Under the pieces are notes generated by a model that was given only the letters and a program-made list of their open reading frames with translations, searched no databases and was not told where the DNA came from. The position numbers and the translations under genes are program-made. A stretch of DNA of 64,000 nucleotides, taken from positions 8,814-72,813 of the forward strand of contig DATDZB010000009.1 of assembly GCA_035288845.1 (NCBI GenBank), read 5' to 3'. Shown in pieces: positions 4,811-53,351 of this stretch (within the stretch, counting starts at the first letter, position 1; every line of letters starts with the position of its first letter). This stretch comes from Candidatus Nanoarchaeia archaeon (lineage in GTDB: Archaea; Nanobdellota; Nanobdellia; SCGC-AAA011-G17; GW2011-AR18).

Positions 4811-6567
4811 ACCAATTTCTTAAGTTCATCAATCATTTCTTTAATTAAATCAAAACCTTTTTGCCAGAATTTCTCATCTTCAATATCAATATTAATTTCT
4901 TTTAATATTTTAGCTGAATTCTCAGATCCACCATAACTTAATATTTTTAAATATTTAGGAACAAAACTTTTTCCTTCTTCCCTATATTTTTCATAAAGAG
5001 ATAAAACTAGTAAATTACCAAATGAATAAGAATAGCAATAAAATGGCGTATGGAAAATATGAGGTATACTTAACCATTCATATTGAAATTCTTCATTAAT
5101 TTTAACAGAATTACCAAATTGTTCTTTTAATACTTCCAAATAAGCTTTTTTAAGTTCTTCTAATCCAGCACCCTTAGCAATTAATTCATGAGCTTTAATT
5201 TCAAAGTCAACAAAATAAATTTGTCTTAAAGTTGTAGCATAAAGATCATCTAAATTATGAGCTAATAAATATTTTTTAAAGTTCTTATCTTTAGATTCTT
5301 TCATTAATTTATCAAATAATAACATCTCTCCAAAAGTAGAAGCAGTTTCAGCTAAAGTTAAAGGAGGATGTGCAGTTAAATTAGAATGTTTACTAGTAAG
5401 CAAATCATGAACTCCATGTCCTAATTCATGAGCCATAGTAAAAACATCTCTTAATTTTGAATTAAAGTTTAATAAAACATATGGTGTAATTCCAGGTCCA
5501 ACATCCATGCAATAAGCTCCGCCCATTTTATTTTTTCTAAGTAAATAATCAATATGTTTTTCATCTACAATTTTCTTAGCTAATTTATACATTTCTGGTG
5601 AATAATCATAATAAGAATCAAAAACTAATTTCTGCGCATCTTCATAACTATATTTTTTATCATAATTTCCATAAGGAACATACACATCATATCTATTCAT
5701 AACTTTAAGTTTACAAAGCTTAGTTTTTAATTTAAAATATTCTTGAAATAAATTTTTATTTTTCTTGCAAACTTTAATTAAAACTTCAATAGATTTATCG
5801 CTAATATCATTGGATTTATTTCTAATAGTCATAGGACTTTCAAATTTTCTTAAATTAATTCCTTCATTCTTCCAATCTAAAATTATATTTCTATAAACTT
5901 CATTTAACACATCTTGGTTTTTAGAATAAACATCATAAAGTGCTTGATAAGCAGCTTTCCTAACATTAGCTTTGGGATGTTTAACATAATCTGCTAATTG
6001 TTCTCTACTTAATATTTGAGTTTTACCACCAATTTTTAAAGTAAATGTAAAAGCACTTGTAATTATATCATAAATTTTAATTAAAGCAGCACTGCTTGTT
6101 ATACCTTTAATATTTAATATTTTTTCTTCTGGCTCACTTAAAATATATTTTTTTAATAATCTAGCATATTGTAAATAATATTTATATTCTCTATCAACAC
6201 CATTAATTATATTGCTTGCATTTTCTTCATCTAAAGATTTAAACCATAAACTAAAAAACATGATTCTATTATCAACATCAACAACTATTTCATCAATTTT
6301 TGACATAAAATTCTTAGCTGCAGAATTGCTAGTATCTTCAGAAAACCACAAATAAGCATAAGAATGTAATTTATTACATATTAAAGATATTTTCTCCTTA
6401 GTTTTAAGAACATTCATAAATTCTTGAGGAGGAAAATTAGGTTTTAATCTAGTTTTATAAGCTTCTATATGTTTAACATGATTTTCTAAATCATTAAGTA
6501 ATGAATTGTATCCTTTAGAATCAATTTGAGGTAACAAGTCTTTTTTATCCCAAGTTTTAGAAGCCAT
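4807..6567 (-). CDS. pepF: oligoendopeptidase F (M3B)
   Basis: 586 aa with 'TMAHELGHGVH' (HExxH) and a downstream 'ETASTFGE' Glu ligand block. Length and layout fit PepF. Confidence 0.85.
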   Translation of the reverse strand: MASKTWDKKDLLPQIDSKGYNSLLNDLENHVKHIEAYKTRLKPNFPPQEFMNVLKTKEKISLICNKLHSYAYLWFSEDTSNSAAKNFMSKIDEIVVDVDNRIMFFSLWFKSLDEENASNIINGVDREYKYYLQYARLLKKYILSEPEEKILNIKGITSSAALIKIYDIITSAFTFTLKIGGKTQILSREQLADYVKHPKANVRKAAYQALYDVYSKNQDVLNEVYRNIILDWKNEGINLRKFESPMTIRNKSNDISDKSIEVLIKVCKKNKNLFQEYFKLKTKLCKLKVMNRYDVYVPYGNYDKKYSYEDAQKLVFDSYYDYSPEMYKLAKKIVDEKHIDYLLRKNKMGGAYCMDVGPGITPYVLLNFNSKLRDVFTMAHELGHGVHDLLTSKHSNLTAHPPLTLAETASTFGEMLLFDKLMKESKDKNFKKYLLAHNLDDLYATTLRQIYFVDFEIKAHELIAKGAGLEELKKAYLEVLKEQFGNSVKINEEFQYEWLSIPHIFHTPFYCYSYSFGNLLVLSLYEKYREEGKSFVPKYLKILSYGGSENSAKILKEINIDIEDEKFWQKGFDLIKEMIDELKKLV

Positions 6568-6657
6568 AAAAAATTATTGGAATAGGTATATAAAAGTGTA
6601 TCTATTAAATCCAAGTAAACAATTAACTTTATAAAATACAAATAGATCAAAACAATT

Positions 6658-8430
6658 ATGACTTATAGAACAAATACTTGTGGAGAATTAACTGAAAAAG
6701 AACTAAAGAAAGAAGTAGAACTTTCTGGTTGGGTAGCAACTAGAAGAGACCATGGTGGAATAATTTTCATTGATTTAAGAGATAGATATGGTATTACTCA
6801 AGTAGTTCTAGATCCAAAGAAAATACCAGAAGCCAATAACCTAAGAAGAGAATGGTGTATAAAAATATCTGGAAAAGTAAGAGCAAGACCTAAAGGAATG
6901 GAAAATCCTAAAATGAAAACAGGTAAAATAGAAGTTGAATCAAATAAATTAGAAATTTTAAACGAATCTGAAACTCCTCCATTTGAAATTGATGATAGGG
7001 TTGAAACAAGTGAAGAAGTAAGATTAAAATATAGATATTTAGATTTAAGAAAAAAACATTTACAAGAAAATATAATATTTAGATCAGAAGTAATAAAGTT
7101 TTTAAGAGATTGGATGCATAATAAAAATTTTATAGAGATTGAAACTCCAATTTTAACAGTTTCTTCTCCAGAAGGAGCAAGAGATTTCTTAGTACCTTCA
7201 AGATTACATCCAGGTAAATTTTATGCATTACCGCAAGCACCACAGCAATATAAACAATTATTAATGGTTGCTGGTTTTGATAGATATTTCCAAGTAGCTC
7301 CTTGTATGAGAGACGAAGATGCAAGAGCAGATAGAAGTCCAGGAGAATTTTACCAATTAGATACAGAAACAAGTTTCTTAACACAAGATGAATTTTTTGA
7401 ATTAATGGAACCATTGTTTATAGAAACCAGTAAAAAGTTTACAAATAAAAAAATATTAAAAATTCCATTTCCAAGAATACCTTACAAAGAAGCAATGTTG
7501 AAATATGGAAATGATAAACCAGATTTAAGATTTAATTTAGAAATTCAAGATATAAGTAAATTAGTAAAAGATTGTAAATTTGATGTTTTCAAAAACATTG
7601 TAAAAGAAAATGGATTTGTAAGAATGTTAAAAGCATCAGATGCTGCAAATAAATTTACAAGAAAAGATTTAGATGAATTAACAGAATTAGCTAAAAGCAA
7701 CGGAGCAGGCGGTTTAGCTTACATTTCATTAAAAGACAAAGAAATAAAATCACCATTGAGTAAATTCTTAGGAGATGATTTAATTAATAAAATAATAAAA
7801 GAAGCAAATGCAAAAGATGGCGATATAATATTCTTTGGAGCAGATAAAGAAAATAAAGTATGTAAAATAATGAGCTCAATAAGAATAGAATTAGCAAAAA
7901 GATTAAACTTAATTGACGAGAATCTATTAGCTTGGCTTTGGATAGTTGACTTTCCAATGTTTGAATTTAATGAAGAAGAAAATAAAATAGATTTCATGCA
8001 TAATCCATTTTCAATGCCTCAAGGTGGTTTAGAAGCGCTAGAAAAAAAGGATCCACTAACAATTTTAGCTTATCAATATGATATTGTTTGTAATGGGTAT
8101 GAATTATCTTCAGGTGCTGTAAGAAATAATATTCCTGAAATAATGTATAAAGCATTTAATATTGCAGGTTATAAAAAAGAAACTGTTGATAAGAAATTTG
8201 GTCATATGATAAGTGCTTTCAAATTTGGAGCTCCTCCTCACTGTGGTTTTGCACCAGGAATTGAAAGAATGGTAATGATTTTAAGAGGAGAAAATAACAT
8301 AAGGGAAATAACAGCATTCCCTAAAAATAAATCTGCAGAAGATCTAATGATGGGTGCTCCTTCTGAAGTAGATCCAAAACAATTAAAAGATCTTAATATA
8401 AAGCTAGATATTGTTAAAAAACAAAACTAA
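6658..8430 (+). CDS. aspS: aspartyl-tRNA synthetase, long bacterial-type with insertion (GAD) domain
   Basis: 590 aa. It has an N-terminal OB fold, class II motifs ('FYQLDTETSF', 'GFAPGIERMVM') and a roughly 130-aa insertion between motifs 2 and 3. Archaeal-type AspRS is about 430 aa without this insertion. Confidence 0.95.
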   Translation: MTYRTNTCGELTEKELKKEVELSGWVATRRDHGGIIFIDLRDRYGITQVVLDPKKIPEANNLRREWCIKISGKVRARPKGMENPKMKTGKIEVESNKLEILNESETPPFEIDDRVETSEEVRLKYRYLDLRKKHLQENIIFRSEVIKFLRDWMHNKNFIEIETPILTVSSPEGARDFLVPSRLHPGKFYALPQAPQQYKQLLMVAGFDRYFQVAPCMRDEDARADRSPGEFYQLDTETSFLTQDEFFELMEPLFIETSKKFTNKKILKIPFPRIPYKEAMLKYGNDKPDLRFNLEIQDISKLVKDCKFDVFKNIVKENGFVRMLKASDAANKFTRKDLDELTELAKSNGAGGLAYISLKDKEIKSPLSKFLGDDLINKIIKEANAKDGDIIFFGADKENKVCKIMSSIRIELAKRLNLIDENLLAWLWIVDFPMFEFNEEENKIDFMHNPFSMPQGGLEALEKKDPLTILAYQYDIVCNGYELSSGAVRNNIPEIMYKAFNIAGYKKETVDKKFGHMISAFKFGAPPHCGFAPGIERMVMILRGENNIREITAFPKNKSAEDLMMGAPSEVDPKQLKDLNIKLDIVKKQN

Positions 8431-8467
8431 AGATAAACTTATAAATATTAATAAATTATAAATTAAA

Positions 8468-8842
8468 ATGGAAGTCCCTAAATCATTAAGAATTTGGTAT
8501 GTAATACACTTTTTCGCAGATATTTTATTTGCAATACCTTTATTTATATTTCCAGAATATACATTAAGTTTACTAGGTTTTACAACAATTGATGTTGTTA
8601 CAGCAAGATTAGTGGCAGCTGCTTTAATTGGAATAGGAACTGCTTCGCTATTACAAAGAAATAATAAAATTGAATCTTTCCAAAGTACTTTAACAATAAA
8701 AGTGATTTGGTCAGTTACAGCAATTTTAGGATTAATAATTTCAATATTAACAAATAAAGCACCAATGTTAACTTGGTTAATAGTATTAATATTTGTAATA
8801 TTTTCAGGAACTTGGATTTATTACAAGATAAAATTAAAATGA
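8468..8842 (+). CDS. small integral membrane protein (about 4 TM)
   Basis: Four hydrophobic segments. Its stop overlaps the next start in an ATGA junction. Confidence 0.5.
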   Translation: MEVPKSLRIWYVIHFFADILFAIPLFIFPEYTLSLLGFTTIDVVTARLVAAALIGIGTASLLQRNNKIESFQSTLTIKVIWSVTAILGLIISILTNKAPMLTWLIVLIFVIFSGTWIYYKIKLK

Positions 8843-36478: not shown

Positions 36479-37057
36479 ATGGAAGAAATAAAAATTGTTA
36501 AAATAGGACATAAAGTAGAAGACTTTGAATTAGAAGCATTTCATAATAATGAAGTAAAGAAAGTAAAATTATCAAATCTAAAAGGAAAATGGATAGTTCT
36601 AGTATTTTATCCAGCAGATTTCACATTTATATGTCCAACAGAATTAACTGAGCTAGCAGATTTGTATAATGAATTTAAAAAAGAAAAAGCTGAAGTTTTA
36701 AGTGTAAGCACAGATACAGTATTTGTACATAAAGCATGGCATGATAATTCTGAATCAATTAAAAAAATAAAATATCCAATGTTAGCTGATCCAACTGGAA
36801 AAGTTTGCAAGCAATTTGGAACTTATATTTATGAAGAAGGACTTTCATTAAGAGGAAGTTTTGTAATAGATCCAGATGGAATACTAAAAGCATATGAATT
36901 GCACGATAATAGCATAGGAAGAAATGCTAAAGAATTATTAAGAAAATTAAAGGCAGCTAAATTTGTAAAAGAACATGGTGGAGAAGTTTGTCCTGCAAAT
37001 TGGGAACCAGGTAAAAAAACACTAAAACCAGGTCTTGATTTAGTTGGAAAAATTTAA
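36479..37057 (+). CDS. typical 2-Cys peroxiredoxin (AhpC/Prx1)
   Basis: 'FYPADFTFICPTEL' (peroxidatic Cys) and 'EVCPANW' (resolving Cys). Confidence 0.9.
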   Translation: MEEIKIVKIGHKVEDFELEAFHNNEVKKVKLSNLKGKWIVLVFYPADFTFICPTELTELADLYNEFKKEKAEVLSVSTDTVFVHKAWHDNSESIKKIKYPMLADPTGKVCKQFGTYIYEEGLSLRGSFVIDPDGILKAYELHDNSIGRNAKELLRKLKAAKFVKEHGGEVCPANWEPGKKTLKPGLDLVGKI

Positions 37058-37067
37058 AGGTGAAAAA

Positions 37068-37661
37068 ATGACATATGAAATTAAAAATTTTGATGAAATA
37101 TTAGGAACTCCTGGATTTTCTGAACAATTATTAAAAAACCATTTTAAATTATATGAAGGTTATGTAAATAATACAAATAAACTATCTCAAATATTAAAAG
37201 ATATGTTAAAAAATGGAAAAACAGATACTCCTGAATTTGCTGAATTAAAAAGAAGATTTGGCTGGGAATTTAATGGAATGAGATTACATGAATTATATTT
37301 CGGAAACATAAGTAAAAAGAAAAAAGAAATGCCAACCAAATCTGTTTTGTTTAAAAAAATGGTAGAAGAATTTGGTTCAGGAGAAAATTGTGAAAAAGAT
37401 TTTGTTTCTACAGGTACAATGCGTGGAATTGGCTGGGTAATAATGTATTATGATAAAGAAGCAGATAGATTATTTAATACCTGGATTAACGAGCATGATG
37501 TTGGGCATTTATCAAGTTGTATTCCAATTTTAATTATGGATGTATTTGAACATGCTTACATGATAGACTACGGTCTAAAAAAAGCAGATTATATTAAAGC
37601 TTTTGTAGATGCAATTGATTGGGATGTTGTACAAAAAAGATTTGAAGAGACACAAAAATAA
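37068..37661 (+). CDS. Fe/Mn superoxide dismutase family protein (divergent)
   Basis: Start moved to the ATG at 37068, preceded by AAGGTGA. All four ligand positions are readable: 'NHFKLY', 'RLHELYF', 'DVFEHAYMIDY'. Confidence 0.8.
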   Translation: MTYEIKNFDEILGTPGFSEQLLKNHFKLYEGYVNNTNKLSQILKDMLKNGKTDTPEFAELKRRFGWEFNGMRLHELYFGNISKKKKEMPTKSVLFKKMVEEFGSGENCEKDFVSTGTMRGIGWVIMYYDKEADRLFNTWINEHDVGHLSSCIPILIMDVFEHAYMIDYGLKKADYIKAFVDAIDWDVVQKRFEETQK

Positions 37662-37699
37662 TGCAAATCTTTTTATATTAAAAAAATTATAAATATTCA

Positions 37700-38956
37700 A
37701 TGAAAGAAAAAACAATATTTTTATCTTTAATTTTTGTATGTTTAACAATATCATTTTTATTAATAGGACCAGTTATAACTGGAAATTTTATTCTAAATAG
37801 AAATTTAGAATCAACAAGTTATGATCAAATGTTTTCCATATTTAGACCTAGATCAACACCTTCTGGTTGTTTTATAGATATGGATTGTCAAAGTGGAGAA
37901 TATTGTGGGAGTGGGGGGGTATGTAGACCTCAAGGACAATTAGGACAAAGATGTTTTTTAGATTCACAATGTCGTTCTGATGTTTGTTCATTATTAGATC
38001 CTATTTCTGGAGTAAGAACTTGTCTTGAATCAGGTTTAGGTGTAAGTGAGTCTTGCATATTAAATAAACAATGTAATTCAGGAGCTTGTCTAAATAATAA
38101 TTGTGCAATTGGCAATTTAAATAATGGAGATTCATGTGTTAACGATTTGCAATGTAAATCAAGATTCTGTAACTTAATTAATGACAATAGATGTGCTCCA
38201 AGCAATTTATTAAAAGAAGGTATGACTTGTTCAAATTCAAGAGAATGTAGAGGTAATTATTGTAGTATAGCTAAATCAATATGTTTAGAAAGAAATAAAC
38301 TATTCATAAATGGAGAAAAATGTTATGATAATGGAGAATGTAGATCAGGTAGGTGTTACCAAAATAGATGTGGACCAGTTAAAAGAGATGGCAGTGGTTG
38401 TACAATAGATAACGAATGTTCATATCTTAGTTTCTGTTTAAACAACATATGTACAGTAATGCATACAGTTCAAACTGGTTCAGCATGTCAAAACCCAAAG
38501 CAATGTATATATGAGCCTTGTATAAATGGAATATGTACTCAAACATGGTTACAAGATGGACAAACATGCGATTATGATACAAATTGTTTATCTGGAGTAT
38601 GTGCAAATAATATTTGTGAACCTAGGGAAGTTCTTAATTTAAATGATCCTTGTTCTAAAGATTTACAATGTATTAGTCATACGTGTGCAAATAGTATTTG
38701 TATAATACAAAATTCTTTACAAGGGGGATCAACTTGTCAAAACAACAATCAATGTCAAACAAAAATATGTGAAAATAATAGATGTGCTTTATTTAGATTA
38801 GAGGGAATTGGAAGAGTATGTTCATCGCACTTTGAATGCAGATCTGGTTTATGTCAAAACCATATTTGCCTTGCAAGTTATTTAAATAGAGGAGAACAAT
38901 GTACAATACATGCACAATGTCAATCAAATAAATGTAGAAATGGCGCTTGTGCTTAA
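37700..38956 (+). CDS. secreted cysteine-rich repeat protein (about 12 tandem 4-Cys modules)
   Basis: N-terminal TM/signal 'IFLSLIFVCLTISFLLIGPVITG', then repeated 'G-x2-C-x5-C-x-S-x2-C-x3-5-C' modules, e.g. GEKCYDNGECRSGRCYQNRCG, GQTCDYDTNCLSGVCANNICE and GEQCTIHAQCQSNKCRNGACA. Confidence 0.75.
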   Translation: MKEKTIFLSLIFVCLTISFLLIGPVITGNFILNRNLESTSYDQMFSIFRPRSTPSGCFIDMDCQSGEYCGSGGVCRPQGQLGQRCFLDSQCRSDVCSLLDPISGVRTCLESGLGVSESCILNKQCNSGACLNNNCAIGNLNNGDSCVNDLQCKSRFCNLINDNRCAPSNLLKEGMTCSNSRECRGNYCSIAKSICLERNKLFINGEKCYDNGECRSGRCYQNRCGPVKRDGSGCTIDNECSYLSFCLNNICTVMHTVQTGSACQNPKQCIYEPCINGICTQTWLQDGQTCDYDTNCLSGVCANNICEPREVLNLNDPCSKDLQCISHTCANSICIIQNSLQGGSTCQNNNQCQTKICENNRCALFRLEGIGRVCSSHFECRSGLCQNHICLASYLNRGEQCTIHAQCQSNKCRNGACA

Positions 38957-38961
38957 TAAAA

Positions 38962-39564
38962 ATGTTAAATGCTTTCATTAATAATTATTATTTAGAAAAT
39001 AAAAGAATATTAAAAACAAAATTCATAAAAGCAAAACCATTTCCTTATTTAGTATTAAAAAAATTTTTCAAAGATGAACTTATAAATAATTTAGCAAAAG
39101 AATTAAAAAAGGAAAACTTCCAAAAACAAGAATCAGATTTATTTTCATTTTCACAAACAAATGATTTAGAAAATTCAAATAATAAAGTAGTAAAAGAATT
39201 TTATAATTTTATTAACTCAAATAAACTTAAAAATTATGTTGAAGAAATAACTGAAATTAAAGCTTACAACAAAATAGACGTTTCTGCATTTATTTACACA
39301 GATAAAGACTATCTTCTGCCTCATGATGATAGGCTTGAAACAAGAAAGATTGCTTATGTATTAAACTTATCAAAAGATTTTACAAGATTAGATGGCGGTT
39401 CCTTAGATTTTTTCAAAAATAATAAAGCTGTAAAAATAATTCAGCCAACATTTAATACATTTACAATATTTAAAGTAATAAAAAATAAAACATATCATCA
39501 AGTTTCTGAAGTATTAACAAATAAGGAAAGATTAAGTATTGCAGGATGGTTTAATAATGATTAA
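38962..39564 (+). CDS. 2OG-Fe(II) oxygenase, Tpa1/Ofd1/OGFOD1-type catalytic (N-terminal) domain
   Basis: The track start is TTG; the ATG is at 38962. 'FPYLVLKKFF', HxD 'LLPHDD', 'RKIAYVLNL', 'GGSLDFF', distal His 'YHQVSEV', 'RLSIAGWF'. Confidence 0.8.
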   Translation: MLNAFINNYYLENKRILKTKFIKAKPFPYLVLKKFFKDELINNLAKELKKENFQKQESDLFSFSQTNDLENSNNKVVKEFYNFINSNKLKNYVEEITEIKAYNKIDVSAFIYTDKDYLLPHDDRLETRKIAYVLNLSKDFTRLDGGSLDFFKNNKAVKIIQPTFNTFTIFKVIKNKTYHQVSEVLTNKERLSIAGWFNND

Positions 39565-40069
39565 CAAGATTTATAATAATAAAGATACAATAAATCAAAT
39601 AAAATTGGTACTAGAAAAAGAAGGAAATATTCAATTACAAAATTTCTTAATAGACTTACCAAAAATCAAAGTTAAGCTAAAAGAAGTTTATATACCGCAA
39701 TTACACAAATATAGATTTAATAATTTTAAAATAAATAAAGAAATAAAAGAATTCATAGAAAAAATAATAAATAAAAAATTAATTTCATCAAAAGTTTATG
39801 AATTTAAACATACAGATTACACCTTAATTAATGATAATATAAAAGAAAAAGAAGGGTATAAAATAATATTAGACTTAACGAAAAATTGGAATGAAGAAGC
39901 AAATGGTTATACTTCATTTATAAAAAATAATGAAGAAGTATTCAGAATAAATCCAGCTTATAATTCATTAACAATAATTAAAACAAATAAAAATATGAAA
40001 AGCTTTGTAAAATATGTAAATAATAAAGCTAAAGATAATAAAAGATTCTTTATTGAGATTAACGTTTAG
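39557..40069 (+). CDS. Ofd1/Tpa1 C-terminal (non-catalytic DSBH) domain-like protein
   Basis: ATG at 39557 overlaps the upstream stop by 8 nt. 'YEFKHTDYTLI', 'ILDLTKNWNEEANGYTSF', 'NSLTII', 'SFVKYVNNKA'. Confidence 0.6.
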   Translation: MINKIYNNKDTINQIKLVLEKEGNIQLQNFLIDLPKIKVKLKEVYIPQLHKYRFNNFKINKEIKEFIEKIINKKLISSKVYEFKHTDYTLINDNIKEKEGYKIILDLTKNWNEEANGYTSFIKNNEEVFRINPAYNSLTIIKTNKNMKSFVKYVNNKAKDNKRFFIEINV

Positions 40070-40349
40070 TAAATTTTAAAACTTTATAAGAATCGCCATG
40101 TTTTGTATAAGTAACTATTCCTTCATCGTTAGGTTTAGTACCATTATAAATATCAAGATTAAAAGAAACAAAATGTAATCCATTTTCTCTATTAGAAAAA
40201 ACAACTTCTGGTTTAGAATCAGGATATCTCATTTCATATTTATGTCTAACAACAACTTCTGCAGTATGTGTAGAACCTATATCAAGAACAGGAGAAGAAA
40301 TACTTCTAACTTTACTAACTAAACCACTAACTGTATTTACTATATTCAT
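40059..40349 (-). CDS. orphan protein G, immediately downstream of rps7
   Basis: 96 aa with an ATG start and a beta-rich sequence. No family. Confidence 0.5.
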   Translation of the reverse strand: MNIVNTVSGLVSKVRSISSPVLDIGSTHTAEVVVRHKYEMRYPDSKPEVVFSNRENGLHFVSFNLDIYNGTKPNDEGIVTYTKHGDSYKVLKFTKR

Positions 40350-40397
40350 TTTTGTCTCAAACCACTAAAAATTTGAAAAGAAAAAAGATTTATAAAA

Positions 40398-40994
40398 TTA
40401 CCTACTTGAATCAGCTTGTCTTTCTAATTCTAATTTCTTAGAAACAGCTTGACTTGCTTGATCTAAATTATAAGCATTAAATATTTCATCAGCCAAAGCT
40501 TCAGACATACTTTTTTTCTTACCAAAACTTTTACCAAAAGCACCTTGTATAAATTGTCTTAAAGCAATATCTATTCTTCTTTGAGGAGCACAGTCTACTG
40601 CTTGAGGATATCTTGCACCACCATATTCAATAGCTGTAATTTCTTCTCTAGGTGCAGCATTTTCTAGTGCTTTAACATAAACTTGAATTGGATTTAATTT
40701 TGTTTTTTCTTCTAAAATTTCAAAAGTTCTTTTAACCATTTTGTAAACATGAGTACCTTTTCCAGTAACATGTCCGCTTGATCTATAATGTTTTTTACCT
40801 TTATGACCTGGAACCATAAGTTTGTTAATTAACCTCTCAACAATATTTACTTTGCTTTTTCCAAATCTAATATTTGAGTTTCTACCAAAACTTCTAGGAA
40901 CTAACATAGCAGAAAGATCAACATATCTTTTCAAACCTGGGTCTTCTACATTAACTCCATTTAAACTCCATTTATCAAAAATTTTAAATTCCAT
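40398..40994 (-). CDS. rps7: 30S ribosomal protein uS7
   Basis: Full-length similarity to archaeal S7 ('INKLMVPGHKGKKH', 'NAAPREEITAIEYGGARYPQAVD'). Confidence 0.95.
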   Translation of the reverse strand: MEFKIFDKWSLNGVNVEDPGLKRYVDLSAMLVPRSFGRNSNIRFGKSKVNIVERLINKLMVPGHKGKKHYRSSGHVTGKGTHVYKMVKRTFEILEEKTKLNPIQVYVKALENAAPREEITAIEYGGARYPQAVDCAPQRRIDIALRQFIQGAFGKSFGKKKSMSEALADEIFNAYNLDQASQAVSKKLELERQADSSR

Positions 40995-40996
40995 AT

Positions 40997-41434
40997 TTAT
41001 CTTCTTCCCTTCTCAATCTTTCCTTTTAATAAAGCATCTAAGCTCTGATCATTAACTTTTATTACTTGCCATCTAACACAAGGAATATCTCCTTTTGCTC
41101 TTCCCATTTTTCCACCAATACATTCAATTAAAACTTCGTCATGTTCATTAATAAATTTTTGAGCATTATCACCTGGAATAAATACAGTAACTTGTTTACC
41201 ATTTTTCAATAATTGTACAACACATGCTTTTCTCATTGCAGAATTAGGCTGTTTAGCTTCAATTTGTCTTTTTTCTAAAACTATACCCTTAGCTTGATGT
41301 GCTCCTCTTAATGGATCAGCTTTTTCTTTAAGATGTAATGCCTTCTTAGTAAACCATTTATTATGCCATCTAGCAGCTTGTCTTTTATTTTTAAGCTTTT
41401 TACCAGACATTAATCCATTACTCTTATTTCCCAT
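40997..41434 (-). CDS. rps12: 30S ribosomal protein uS12
   Basis: '[40 protein letters not shown]' is the archaeal/eukaryotic uS12 core. Confidence 0.97.
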
Positions 41435-41505: not shown

Positions 41506-41940
41506 TTAGAGAAGATTATTCTCTTCTACTTCTATTTTAAAGTAAGTAACAGGATAATGTGCATAAGCATCCTTACGACCTTCATCTATATCAACTACTC
41601 TATGAATAAGATCAGCATCAGGATCTCTTGTTGTTAGTTCTACCCCATACATAAATGTAGGTTTTCCCACAAAATAAGCATTTGCATCAGCAGCATATAA
41701 AGGTTTTTGTGTTTCTACTTCTCCATAAAGAGAAGGAGGGAAAAATTCAGGTTGTCCCCATTTAATCCCACTATGATCTTTTTGATCAACCCTGCTAGGG
41801 ATCTGTACAATAGTTACTCCTACAAATTCAGGAGAACCAACCATTCCATCCAGAGCTAATTTTCTATCCTTTTGAGTAAGTCTTCTTAATGAACCCATTT
41901 CATTTATTTCTTGTGTATCAATTCTTTGTGCATTTACCAT
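41506..41940 (-). CDS. orphan protein H, between nusA and rps12
   Basis: 144 aa with an ATG start. No recognisable family. Confidence 0.55.
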   Translation of the reverse strand: MVNAQRIDTQEINEMGSLRRLTQKDRKLALDGMVGSPEFVGVTIVQIPSRVDQKDHSGIKWGQPEFFPPSLYGEVETQKPLYAADANAYFVGKPTFMYGVELTTRDPDADLIHRVVDIDEGRKDAYAHYPVTYFKIEVEENNLL

Positions 41941-53220: not shown

Positions 53221-53351
53221 TCCCTGCTGCCAGATTCGAACCAGCAACCTCACGGGATCAGCTGTCTGTTTTTCATTTCCAGCAATTAAAGCATTAGATC
53301 AAACAGTGAATTAATCTACAGCCGTGTGCTCTACCATTGAGCTAAGCAGGG
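53221..53351 (-). tRNA. tRNA-Tyr(GUA) with one roughly 59-nt anticodon-loop intron
   Basis: Acceptor CCCTGCT/AGCAGGG (C1-G72, the archaeal/eukaryal Tyr identity pair), anticodon arm CACGG-CTGTAG...-CCGTG, T arm GCTGG-TTCGAAT-CTGGC. The exact junction (37/38 or 38/39) is not resolved by hand. Confidence 0.8.

Follow-up and report, generated by a model that had tools for sequence, protein, structure and literature searches.

A putative two-subunit archaeal counterpart of the ribosomal prolyl hydroxylase OGFOD1/Tpa1/Ofd1

Do archaea hold a counterpart of the eukaryotic ribosomal prolyl 3-hydroxylase OGFOD1/Tpa1/Ofd1, and if so, is it made as two separate proteins? The question is raised by two overlapping open reading frames (ORFs), ORF1 and ORF2, which lie close to the gene for ribosomal protein uS12 in a stretch of 64,000 nucleotides from a Candidatus Nanoarchaeia archaeon (contig DATDZB010000009.1, positions 8,814 to 72,813; hereafter the window). 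An earlier note on this DNA had read the two ORFs as the catalytic and the non-catalytic domain of the OGFOD1/Tpa1/Ofd1 family, encoded in two pieces beside the family's known substrate. From the profile, structural and genomic comparisons described below, we consider it probable, though short of firm, that the pair is a two-subunit archaeal counterpart of this enzyme, with coupled translation of its two cistrons, a non-covalent association of their products and uS12 as the protein that is hydroxylated.

The catalytic and the non-catalytic subunit

The five segments by which ORF1 had been recognised (LLPHDD, RKIAYVLNL, GGSLDFF, YHQVSEV and RLSIAGWF) are all present in its sequence, and profile, pairwise and fold comparisons agree in assigning it to the catalytic domain of the OGFOD1/Tpa1/Ofd1 subfamily. 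ORF1 matches Pfam PF13661 (2OG-FeII_Oxy_4) with an E-value of 9.5e-25. Its best sequence relatives among solved structures are human OGFOD1 (4nhx, 4e-23) and Tpa1 (2.5e-14), and the next match, Pseudomonas PPHD, reaches only 0.066. When the AlphaFold2 model of ORF1 (predicted local distance difference test score, pLDDT, 96.8) was compared with known folds by Foldseek, OGFOD1 again ranked first (4nhy, E 2e-17, template modelling (TM) score 0.90), followed by Tpa1; other oxygenases (PolD, PasI, PPHD) match the model at E ~1e-12, and the PHD2/PPHD folds lie below OGFOD1 and Tpa1 with TM scores of 0.67-0.76. Given the gap between PPHD and OGFOD1 in sequence score, the lower fold rank and the presence of a C-terminal-type partner, membership of the PHD/EGLN-type prolyl 4-hydroxylases was rejected. 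The sole NCBIfam match of ORF1, to YhhC (NF041706, a cyclophane-forming peptide 2-oxoglutarate oxygenase; 2.5e-11), was rejected as well, since its 43.6 bits fall far below the cut-off of 150 and reflect a general superfamily likeness, not membership.

The residues of ORF1 were placed on OGFOD1 by pairwise alignment and the residue list of PMC4396695, which is also the source for the roles of the iron-ligand and 2-oxoglutarate-binding residues in OGFOD1. The HxD iron ligands H121 and D123, the distal ligand H179 and R190 of the RxS motif (Table 1) are invariant across 34 homologues, and S192 of the same motif is present in the window ORF1. The likeness extends to the substrate groove. In yeast, uS12 is hydroxylated less when OGFOD1 residues L95, Y96, L152 and R162 are mutated (PMC4396695); these residues align with L60, F61, L118 and R128 of ORF1, of which L60, L118 and R128 show no variation within the archaeal family across the same homologues. 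Judged by sequence and predicted fold, ORF1 is thus a member of the OGFOD1/Tpa1/Ofd1 subfamily with a complete Fe(II)/2-oxoglutarate oxygenase domain.

ORF2, which overlaps ORF1 by 8 nt and holds the expected segments YEFKHTDYTLI, ILDLTKNW and SFVKYVNNKA, could likewise be assigned as proposed, namely to the second, non-catalytic domain of the subfamily. Three comparisons support this: with Pfam PF10637 (Ofd1_CTDD; 1.5e-10, 41.4 bits at a curated cut-off of 27), with residues 457-547 of the OGFOD1 chain of 4nhx (4.6e-11) and, by Foldseek, of its predicted model (pLDDT 84.2), the best matches being OGFOD1 (TM 0.75), the Ofd1 C-terminal domain (6e0t, TM 0.72) and Tpa1. Neither ORF was placed in a different 2-oxoglutarate oxygenase subfamily, and the relation of ORF2 to the Ofd1 C-terminal domain held, which were the two points on which the reading could have failed. 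ORF1 and ORF2 are also related to each other (hhalign probability 98.2%, E 3.5e-14, 23% identity). The positions of the iron triad in ORF2 are occupied by N, N and F, so that it cannot bind iron in the same way; by sequence it is a non-catalytic paralogue of ORF1 from which the iron ligands have disappeared.

Both halves are thus homologous to, and in the same order as, those of human OGFOD1, Saccharomyces cerevisiae Tpa1, Schizosaccharomyces pombe Ofd1 and Drosophila Sudestada1: a catalytic beta-helix with the HxD...H and RxS motifs is followed by a ligand-free second beta-helix of the Ofd1_CTDD type. The beta4-beta5 hairpin and the groove residues corresponding to L95, L152 and R162 of OGFOD1 are conserved in the archaeal protein, and the candidate uS12 substrate segment is near-identical. 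Unlike the single-chain eukaryotic enzymes, the archaeal form, known from sequence and predicted models, consists of two polypeptides from overlapping cistrons without the linker of 31-95 residues, and its ORF2 is compact (170 residues), lacking the acidic and dimerisation inserts of the eukaryotic proteins.

More distant comparisons set the pair apart. Pseudomonas PPHD (PDB 4iw3, 4j25) has a prokaryotic Fe/2-oxoglutarate prolyl hydroxylase fold (TM ~0.75) and is a prolyl 4-hydroxylase that acts on EF-Tu, hence on the translation machinery; however, it is a single-domain protein of the PHD/EGLN branch without an Ofd1-type partner, and far more distant from ORF1 than OGFOD1 or Tpa1. With bacterial YcfD/RoxA and human NO66/MINA53 there is only a functional analogy, the oxygen-dependent hydroxylation of ribosomal proteins, as these belong to the JmjC subfamily, modify other residues and targets, and showed no detectable similarity to the pair.

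Architecture of the gene junction

Is the division into two genes real, and are two proteins made? A scan of one genome per GTDB species with a single peptide pattern, DYLLPHDD, which does not reach archaea with a different form of the motif, among them the Asgard archaea, gave 52 loci, 51 of them with an intact ORF1 end on which the junction counts are based. ORF2 lies directly 3' of ORF1 in essentially every sufficiently long locus, and its ATG is embedded in the last ORF1 codons in 48 of the 51, with an overlap of 8 or 11 nt (47 nt in three related loci). In 48 loci, too, Gly-Trp-Phe/Tyr is followed by a NAT codon and then by one that begins with G, so that an ATG in the +1 frame opens ORF2. 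What is fixed here are the nucleotides A-T-G, while the encoded amino acids vary (H/Y/N, then G/D/A/E). Where the junction codon specifies His it is CAT in 30 loci and CAC in one, and this lone CAC locus and L002 (AAC) are loci in which ORF2 starts elsewhere. A Shine-Dalgarno-like GGAGG or GGTG is found 7-12 nt upstream of the ORF2 ATG in 40 of 48 loci. It arises because GGG is the preferred codon for the conserved Gly of the Gly-Trp pair (30 of 48), in loci spanning 23-61% GC.

Two exceptional loci are informative. In L002, the closest GTDB relative of the window genome, ORF1 ends in AAC AAC without an embedded ATG, and 768 nt filled by an opposite-strand gene (Table 1) lie between the two ORFs. 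Separated by an unrelated gene, the two must act there as separate polypeptides. In L034, ORF2 stands in a different relative frame. Across loci, the pairwise identities of ORF1 and of ORF2 correlate with r = 0.76. A word-indexed search returned 91 ORF1-like proteins, all short (117-282 residues, most of 180-210), and 11 ORF2-like proteins including the window's own (167-194 residues); none of either kind is fused. L048 and L053 carry overlapping C-terminal-type genes with a DYSLLHD or DYSIIH motif, which the first ORF2 profile had missed.

The split is therefore a conserved, selected two-cistron architecture: the conserved ATG, the Shine-Dalgarno-like motif and the separation in L002 argue for two polypeptides made by coupled translation, and against an assembly error, a pseudogene or frameshifting. 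That the protein is encoded in two pieces, as had been claimed, was substantiated by an arrangement that about 48 further species representatives among the archaea retain. In a region that is AT-rich and full of homopolymer runs, and so prone to single-base errors, one might suspect a frameshift introduced by sequencing or assembly, or else a once-fused gene that is decaying into a pseudogene. This explanation is refuted and its probability is negligible, since the same architecture recurs in 48 of 51 independent species-representative loci over the whole GC range given above, an independent public assembly (Logan SRR2090153) has the identical ORF1/ORF2 sequence, ORF1-like and ORF2-like proteins are all short, and the catalytic residues are invariant.

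Somewhat more attention is due to programmed +1 ribosomal frameshifting, by which ribosomes close to the end of ORF1 would read on into ORF2 and make a single fused protein, given that nearly all loci, with L002 and L034 as exceptions, have ORF2 shifted by +1 against the frame of ORF1 and that the junction is highly conserved. We nevertheless regard it as improbable. Frameshifting requires neither a start codon conserved at the nucleotide level nor a Shine-Dalgarno-like motif, the ORF1 stop codon is always present, and neither the 768-nt separation around an opposite-strand gene in L002 nor the different relative frame in L034 fits a fused product; no slippery or shifty motif was noticed, none having been searched for specifically. 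With two cistrons, the overlap would couple the translation of ORF1 and ORF2 and yield equal amounts of both proteins, which may then associate non-covalently in the manner of the OGFOD1 domain packing, as a heterodimer without the eukaryotic linker.

The candidate substrate uS12 and the surrounding genes

The uS12 gene of the window matches archaeal and eukaryotic uS12 structures (1e-48 to 1e-39, with eukaryotic RPS23 chains at ~1e-39) and carries KQPNSA, the motif that contains the proline hydroxylated in eukaryotic uS12. The candidate target is P63, within KQPNS. The claim that uS12 lies less than 1.5 kb from the pair with the motif retained is correct as to position, the 3' end of uS12 being 0.93 kb from the end of ORF2, and as to motif. 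As evidence for the substrate it does not stand: only four of the 52 loci have uS12 and uS7 no more than 6 kb away from the pair, the genes are convergent, and EAKQPNS is identical in Pyrococcus uS12, so that the motif is not specific to genomes with the pair.

It could still be argued that co-regulation holds the genes of enzyme and substrate together, as the arrangement of the window recurs in L002, L003, L004 and L031. These are, however, its four closest relatives (ORF1 identity 65-71%), which share a wider synteny including upstream genes for a peroxiredoxin (Prx) and a superoxide dismutase (SOD), and uS12 is absent within 6 kb in the other 48 loci. In addition, the convergent genes are not co-transcribed, and uS12 belongs to a standard L30e-NusA-S12-S7 cluster. 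A functional adjacency is thus very improbable, and the proximity of uS12 is a coincidence of local gene order.

Grounds other than proximity make uS12 the most likely substrate, as judged from sequence conservation: it is the best candidate because it is the defining substrate of the family, because the groove residues are conserved and because the target segment is nearly unchanged between archaea and eukaryotes. In the mechanism that we propose, the complex would use O2 and 2-oxoglutarate to hydroxylate P63 of uS12 (in KQPNSA) at the ribosomal decoding centre.

Several points weigh against this proposal. The substrate assignment for the archaeal members is drawn from homology only, and the family function is not strictly single, as eukaryotic members have activities beyond uS12, such as that of Ofd1 in Sre1 turnover. 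The vicinity of uS12 is restricted to close relatives, the other 48 loci having no uS12 within 6 kb. When ORFs of at least 80 residues were clustered over the 52 loci, no conserved neighbour was found beyond ORF2 and beyond sub-clades (at most 19 loci), the recurrences of other neighbours following those sub-clades. Finally, Tyr169 of OGFOD1, which contacts the C-5 carboxylate of 2-oxoglutarate, is Asn135 in ORF1 and N, Q or Y across the family; we regard this replacement as a minor feature that does not define the subfamily.

These points leave room for a genuine two-subunit oxygenase of the OGFOD1 family that acts on another target, whether another translation factor or ribosomal protein, some other protein or a small molecule. 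Such a substrate would fit the lack of a conserved genomic link to uS12, the lack of conservation at the Tyr169 equivalent, the weak, sub-threshold match to the peptide-modifying YhhC, and the small-molecule and EF-Tu hydroxylases (PolD, PasI, PPHD) that follow OGFOD1 and Tpa1 among the fold matches. Yet OGFOD1 and Tpa1 are clearly closest, both in sequence and in fold (TM 0.90 versus ~0.75), the family-specific non-catalytic partner domain is kept, the groove residues tested in OGFOD1 are conserved, and no other known substrate of the family is, like uS12, common to archaea and eukaryotes in nearly unchanged form. A target other than uS12 is therefore a serious alternative, and one that we hold to be considerably less probable than hydroxylation of uS12.

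Prx, SOD, a Cys-rich repeat protein, ORF1 and ORF2 form five tightly packed plus-strand genes (36479-40069) with gaps of about 40 nt or less, on which the minus-strand uS7/uS12 group converges (Table 1). Of the 52 loci, only those of the four closest relatives have Prx and SOD as same-strand genes upstream of ORF1, at a distance of about 35 nt or less in three of them and 580 nt in L004. The five genes may represent an oxygen-related expression unit limited to a narrow clade, and in this genome and its closest relatives the pair may share its expression with the upstream Prx and SOD genes when oxygen is present. The Cys-rich protein has an N-terminal hydrophobic segment and about a dozen Cys-rich repeats, with only weak Pfam matches (EB module, DUF7107, Dickkopf_N). 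Its gene lies between SOD and ORF1 in the window and not in the four closest relatives, and a relative of it was found only in L007.

Downstream, the minus-strand 96-residue ORF is convergent with ORF2 and overlaps its 3' end by 11 nt. Small ORFs of L002 (e.g. 8193-8513) resemble it, with a common DSKP(D/E)VVF motif. NusA-type KH and uS12 genes are adjacent in many archaea; in the window a 144-residue ORF intervenes. The G+C content of the window is about 27%, and by sequence its source organism is an archaeon, since the closest relatives are titled Woesearchaeota and the pair adjoins the archaeal L30e-NusA-S12-S7 cluster. Elsewhere in the window, Rfam reports a 131-nt tRNA match at 53221-53351 (minus strand) that is absent from the ARAGORN output; it is probably an intron-containing archaeal tRNA.

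Table 1. Positions of the gene pair, its predicted active-site codons, the surrounding genes and two features of other loci (window coordinates unless a locus is named)
Feature	Position	Strand	Remarks
ORF1, 200 aa	38962-39564	+	ATG 38962 to TAA 39564; predicted catalytic double-stranded beta-helix (DSBH) subunit
H121-D122-D123 codons	39322..39330	+	H121 and D123, HxD iron ligands; OGFOD1 H155, D157
H179 codon	39496..39498	+	distal iron ligand; OGFOD1 H218
R190-L191-S192 codons	39529..39537	+	RxS, binding the 2-oxoglutarate C-5 carboxylate; OGFOD1 R230/S232
Stop/start overlap, 8 nt, ATGATTAA	39557-39564	+	ORF2 ATG within last ORF1 codons, +1 frame
ORF2, 170 aa	39557-40069	+	ATG 39557 to TAG 40069; predicted non-catalytic DSBH subunit
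uS12	40997-41434	-	Pfam PF00164, 7.3e-38
uS12 P63 codon	41246-41248	-	candidate target proline
Peroxiredoxin (Prx)	36479-37057	+	Pfam AhpC-TSA, 8e-41
Fe/Mn superoxide dismutase (SOD)	ends 37661	+	Pfam Sod_Fe_C, 1.1e-24
Cys-rich repeat protein, 418 aa	37700-38956	+	
96-aa ORF	40059-40349	-	no family match
uS7	40398-40994	-	
144-aa ORF	41506-41940	-	no Pfam match; between NusA-type KH gene and uS12
NusA-type KH protein		-	
L7Ae/L30e-family protein		-	
Two RNA polymerase A subunits		-	from translations read by eye only
L002 intervening gene, 247 aa	L002 6590-7333	-	no Pfam match; between ORF1 and ORF2
P0105, fused OGFOD1-like gene, 426 aa	L054 8001-9281		23-kb metagenomic contig

Distribution, origin and meaning of the archaeal pair

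By record title, the 52 loci are mostly Woesearchaeota, Nanoarchaeota or Nanoarchaeia, with one Poseidoniia. The latter, a contig of about 61% G+C titled as marine group II (L048), bears the same gene pair with an 8-nt overlap at 5968-7084, so that the architecture extends beyond the DPANN archaea. Not all titles can be taken at face value. A number of loci are titled "uncultured Methanosarcinales archaeon" (L009, L011, L014, L017, L018, L020, L022, L025, L028 and others); their pairs group with those of Woesearchaeota and Nanoarchaeota loci, and some show synteny with the Woesearchaeota-titled L010. L039, titled "bacterium", groups in the same way and has a junction near-identical to that of the Nanoarchaeota-titled L041. 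The titles of these Methanosarcinales- and bacterium-titled loci are probably unreliable.

The earlier note had proposed to survey other archaea for fused or split versions and to compare both pieces with their eukaryotic relatives by phylogeny. An exhaustive profile search, which covered 1.84 billion representative proteins, returned 5288 matches with E ≤ 1e-3, of which 565 reached E ≤ 1e-30. The top 150 comprise 75 short proteins (151-247 residues) and 75 long ones (343-998 residues); nearly all of these long proteins hold both halves in the same order, and the named long proteins are all eukaryotic. The split form, with overlaps of 8 or 11 nt, was also seen in two more short representatives, one of which comes from an archaeal metagenome-assembled genome, on a 405-kb contig with L15e and LysW/LysX genes. 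The survey thus returned split forms only, no fused archaeal form being seen among the 52 scanned loci and the 91 ORF1-like and 11 ORF2-like proteins. Three candidates for fused prokaryotic forms (P0235, P0252 and P0123) were rejected, as they lie on eukaryotic contigs with Nic96, cyclin, WD40 and SMC genes. P0105 is the sole checked fused relative on a bacterium-like contig, the other fused relatives of checked origin being eukaryotic. Its contig shows bacterium-like packing and genes for DsbD, AhpC/TSA, radical SAM, glycosyltransferase, pyruvate kinase and acyl-CoA dehydrogenase, and its nearest relatives are eukaryotic OGFOD1 proteins (40-43% identity). P0105 looks like a separate eukaryote-to-bacterium transfer and not a link to the archaeal pair, a chimeric assembly being also possible.

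All trees were calculated by the distance-based neighbour-joining method, with 240 sequences for the N-terminal and 122 for the C-terminal halves. In the N-terminal tree, at least 69 of 72 fused proteins fall together, with at most two split intruders, in about 85% of bootstrap replicates; for the C-terminal halves it is at least 73 of 74, again with at most two intruders, in about 78%. The archaeal split proteins and the fused proteins thus form separate groups for both pieces, and no particular eukaryote can thus be the recent source of the archaeal pair. The archaeal split group is, moreover, as diverse as the fused, mainly eukaryotic, one.

Which of the two forms came first is a more delicate matter. 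With each half used as outgroup to the other (neighbour-joining, weak support), the eukaryotic halves form single groups in 66% and 48% of replicates versus 34% and 12% for the archaeal halves; the identity between the two halves is 19.8% in archaea versus 16.5% in eukaryotes. The sequence comparisons lean towards an origin of the eukaryotic gene by fusion of an archaeal operon, and the rooting evidence does not decide the matter. Tentatively, then, and with the odds rather against it, the two-gene archaeal operon may be ancestral: an early tandem duplication would have produced the catalytic and the non-catalytic gene, eukaryotic OGFOD1 would have arisen by their fusion, for which we propose that a one-base change at the overlapping stop and start would suffice, and hydroxylation of the uS12 proline would be an archaeal invention. 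The alternative is an ancient transfer from eukaryotes followed by fission.

The OGFOD1/Tpa1/Ofd1 subfamily has been placed only in eukaryotes (PMC4396695). A 2015 review describes protein hydroxylation by such enzymes as common in eukaryotes and many prokaryotes, "but not archaea" (PMC4543633), and according to a 2018 paper ribosomal oxygenases "appear not to be present in archaea" (PMC5862935), an absence reported there for the JmjC-type ribosomal oxygenases (YcfD/RoxA, NO66/MINA53). We found no earlier description of an archaeal OGFOD1, Tpa1 or Ofd1 in the literature searched; the "TPA1" of one archaeal paper is a transporter class and not a hydroxylase. Automatic annotation already labels some archaeal members "Tpa1-like" or "prolyl 3-hydroxylase", and what is new here is the recognition and analysis of the split two-subunit archaeal form, not its raw detection.

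A clear counterpart of both OGFOD1 domains in many uncultured archaea contradicts this published picture and makes it possible to test how decoding-centre hydroxylation arose. With the enzyme naturally divided into two small proteins that lack the linker and the eukaryotic inserts, the role of the non-catalytic domain can also be tested directly. For the organisms themselves, the gene pair implies that these archaea with small genomes meet molecular oxygen and may tune translation with it. Should the two-gene operon indeed prove ancestral, the oxygen-dependent hydroxylation of the uS12 proline would have been inherited by eukaryotes and would not be a eukaryotic innovation.

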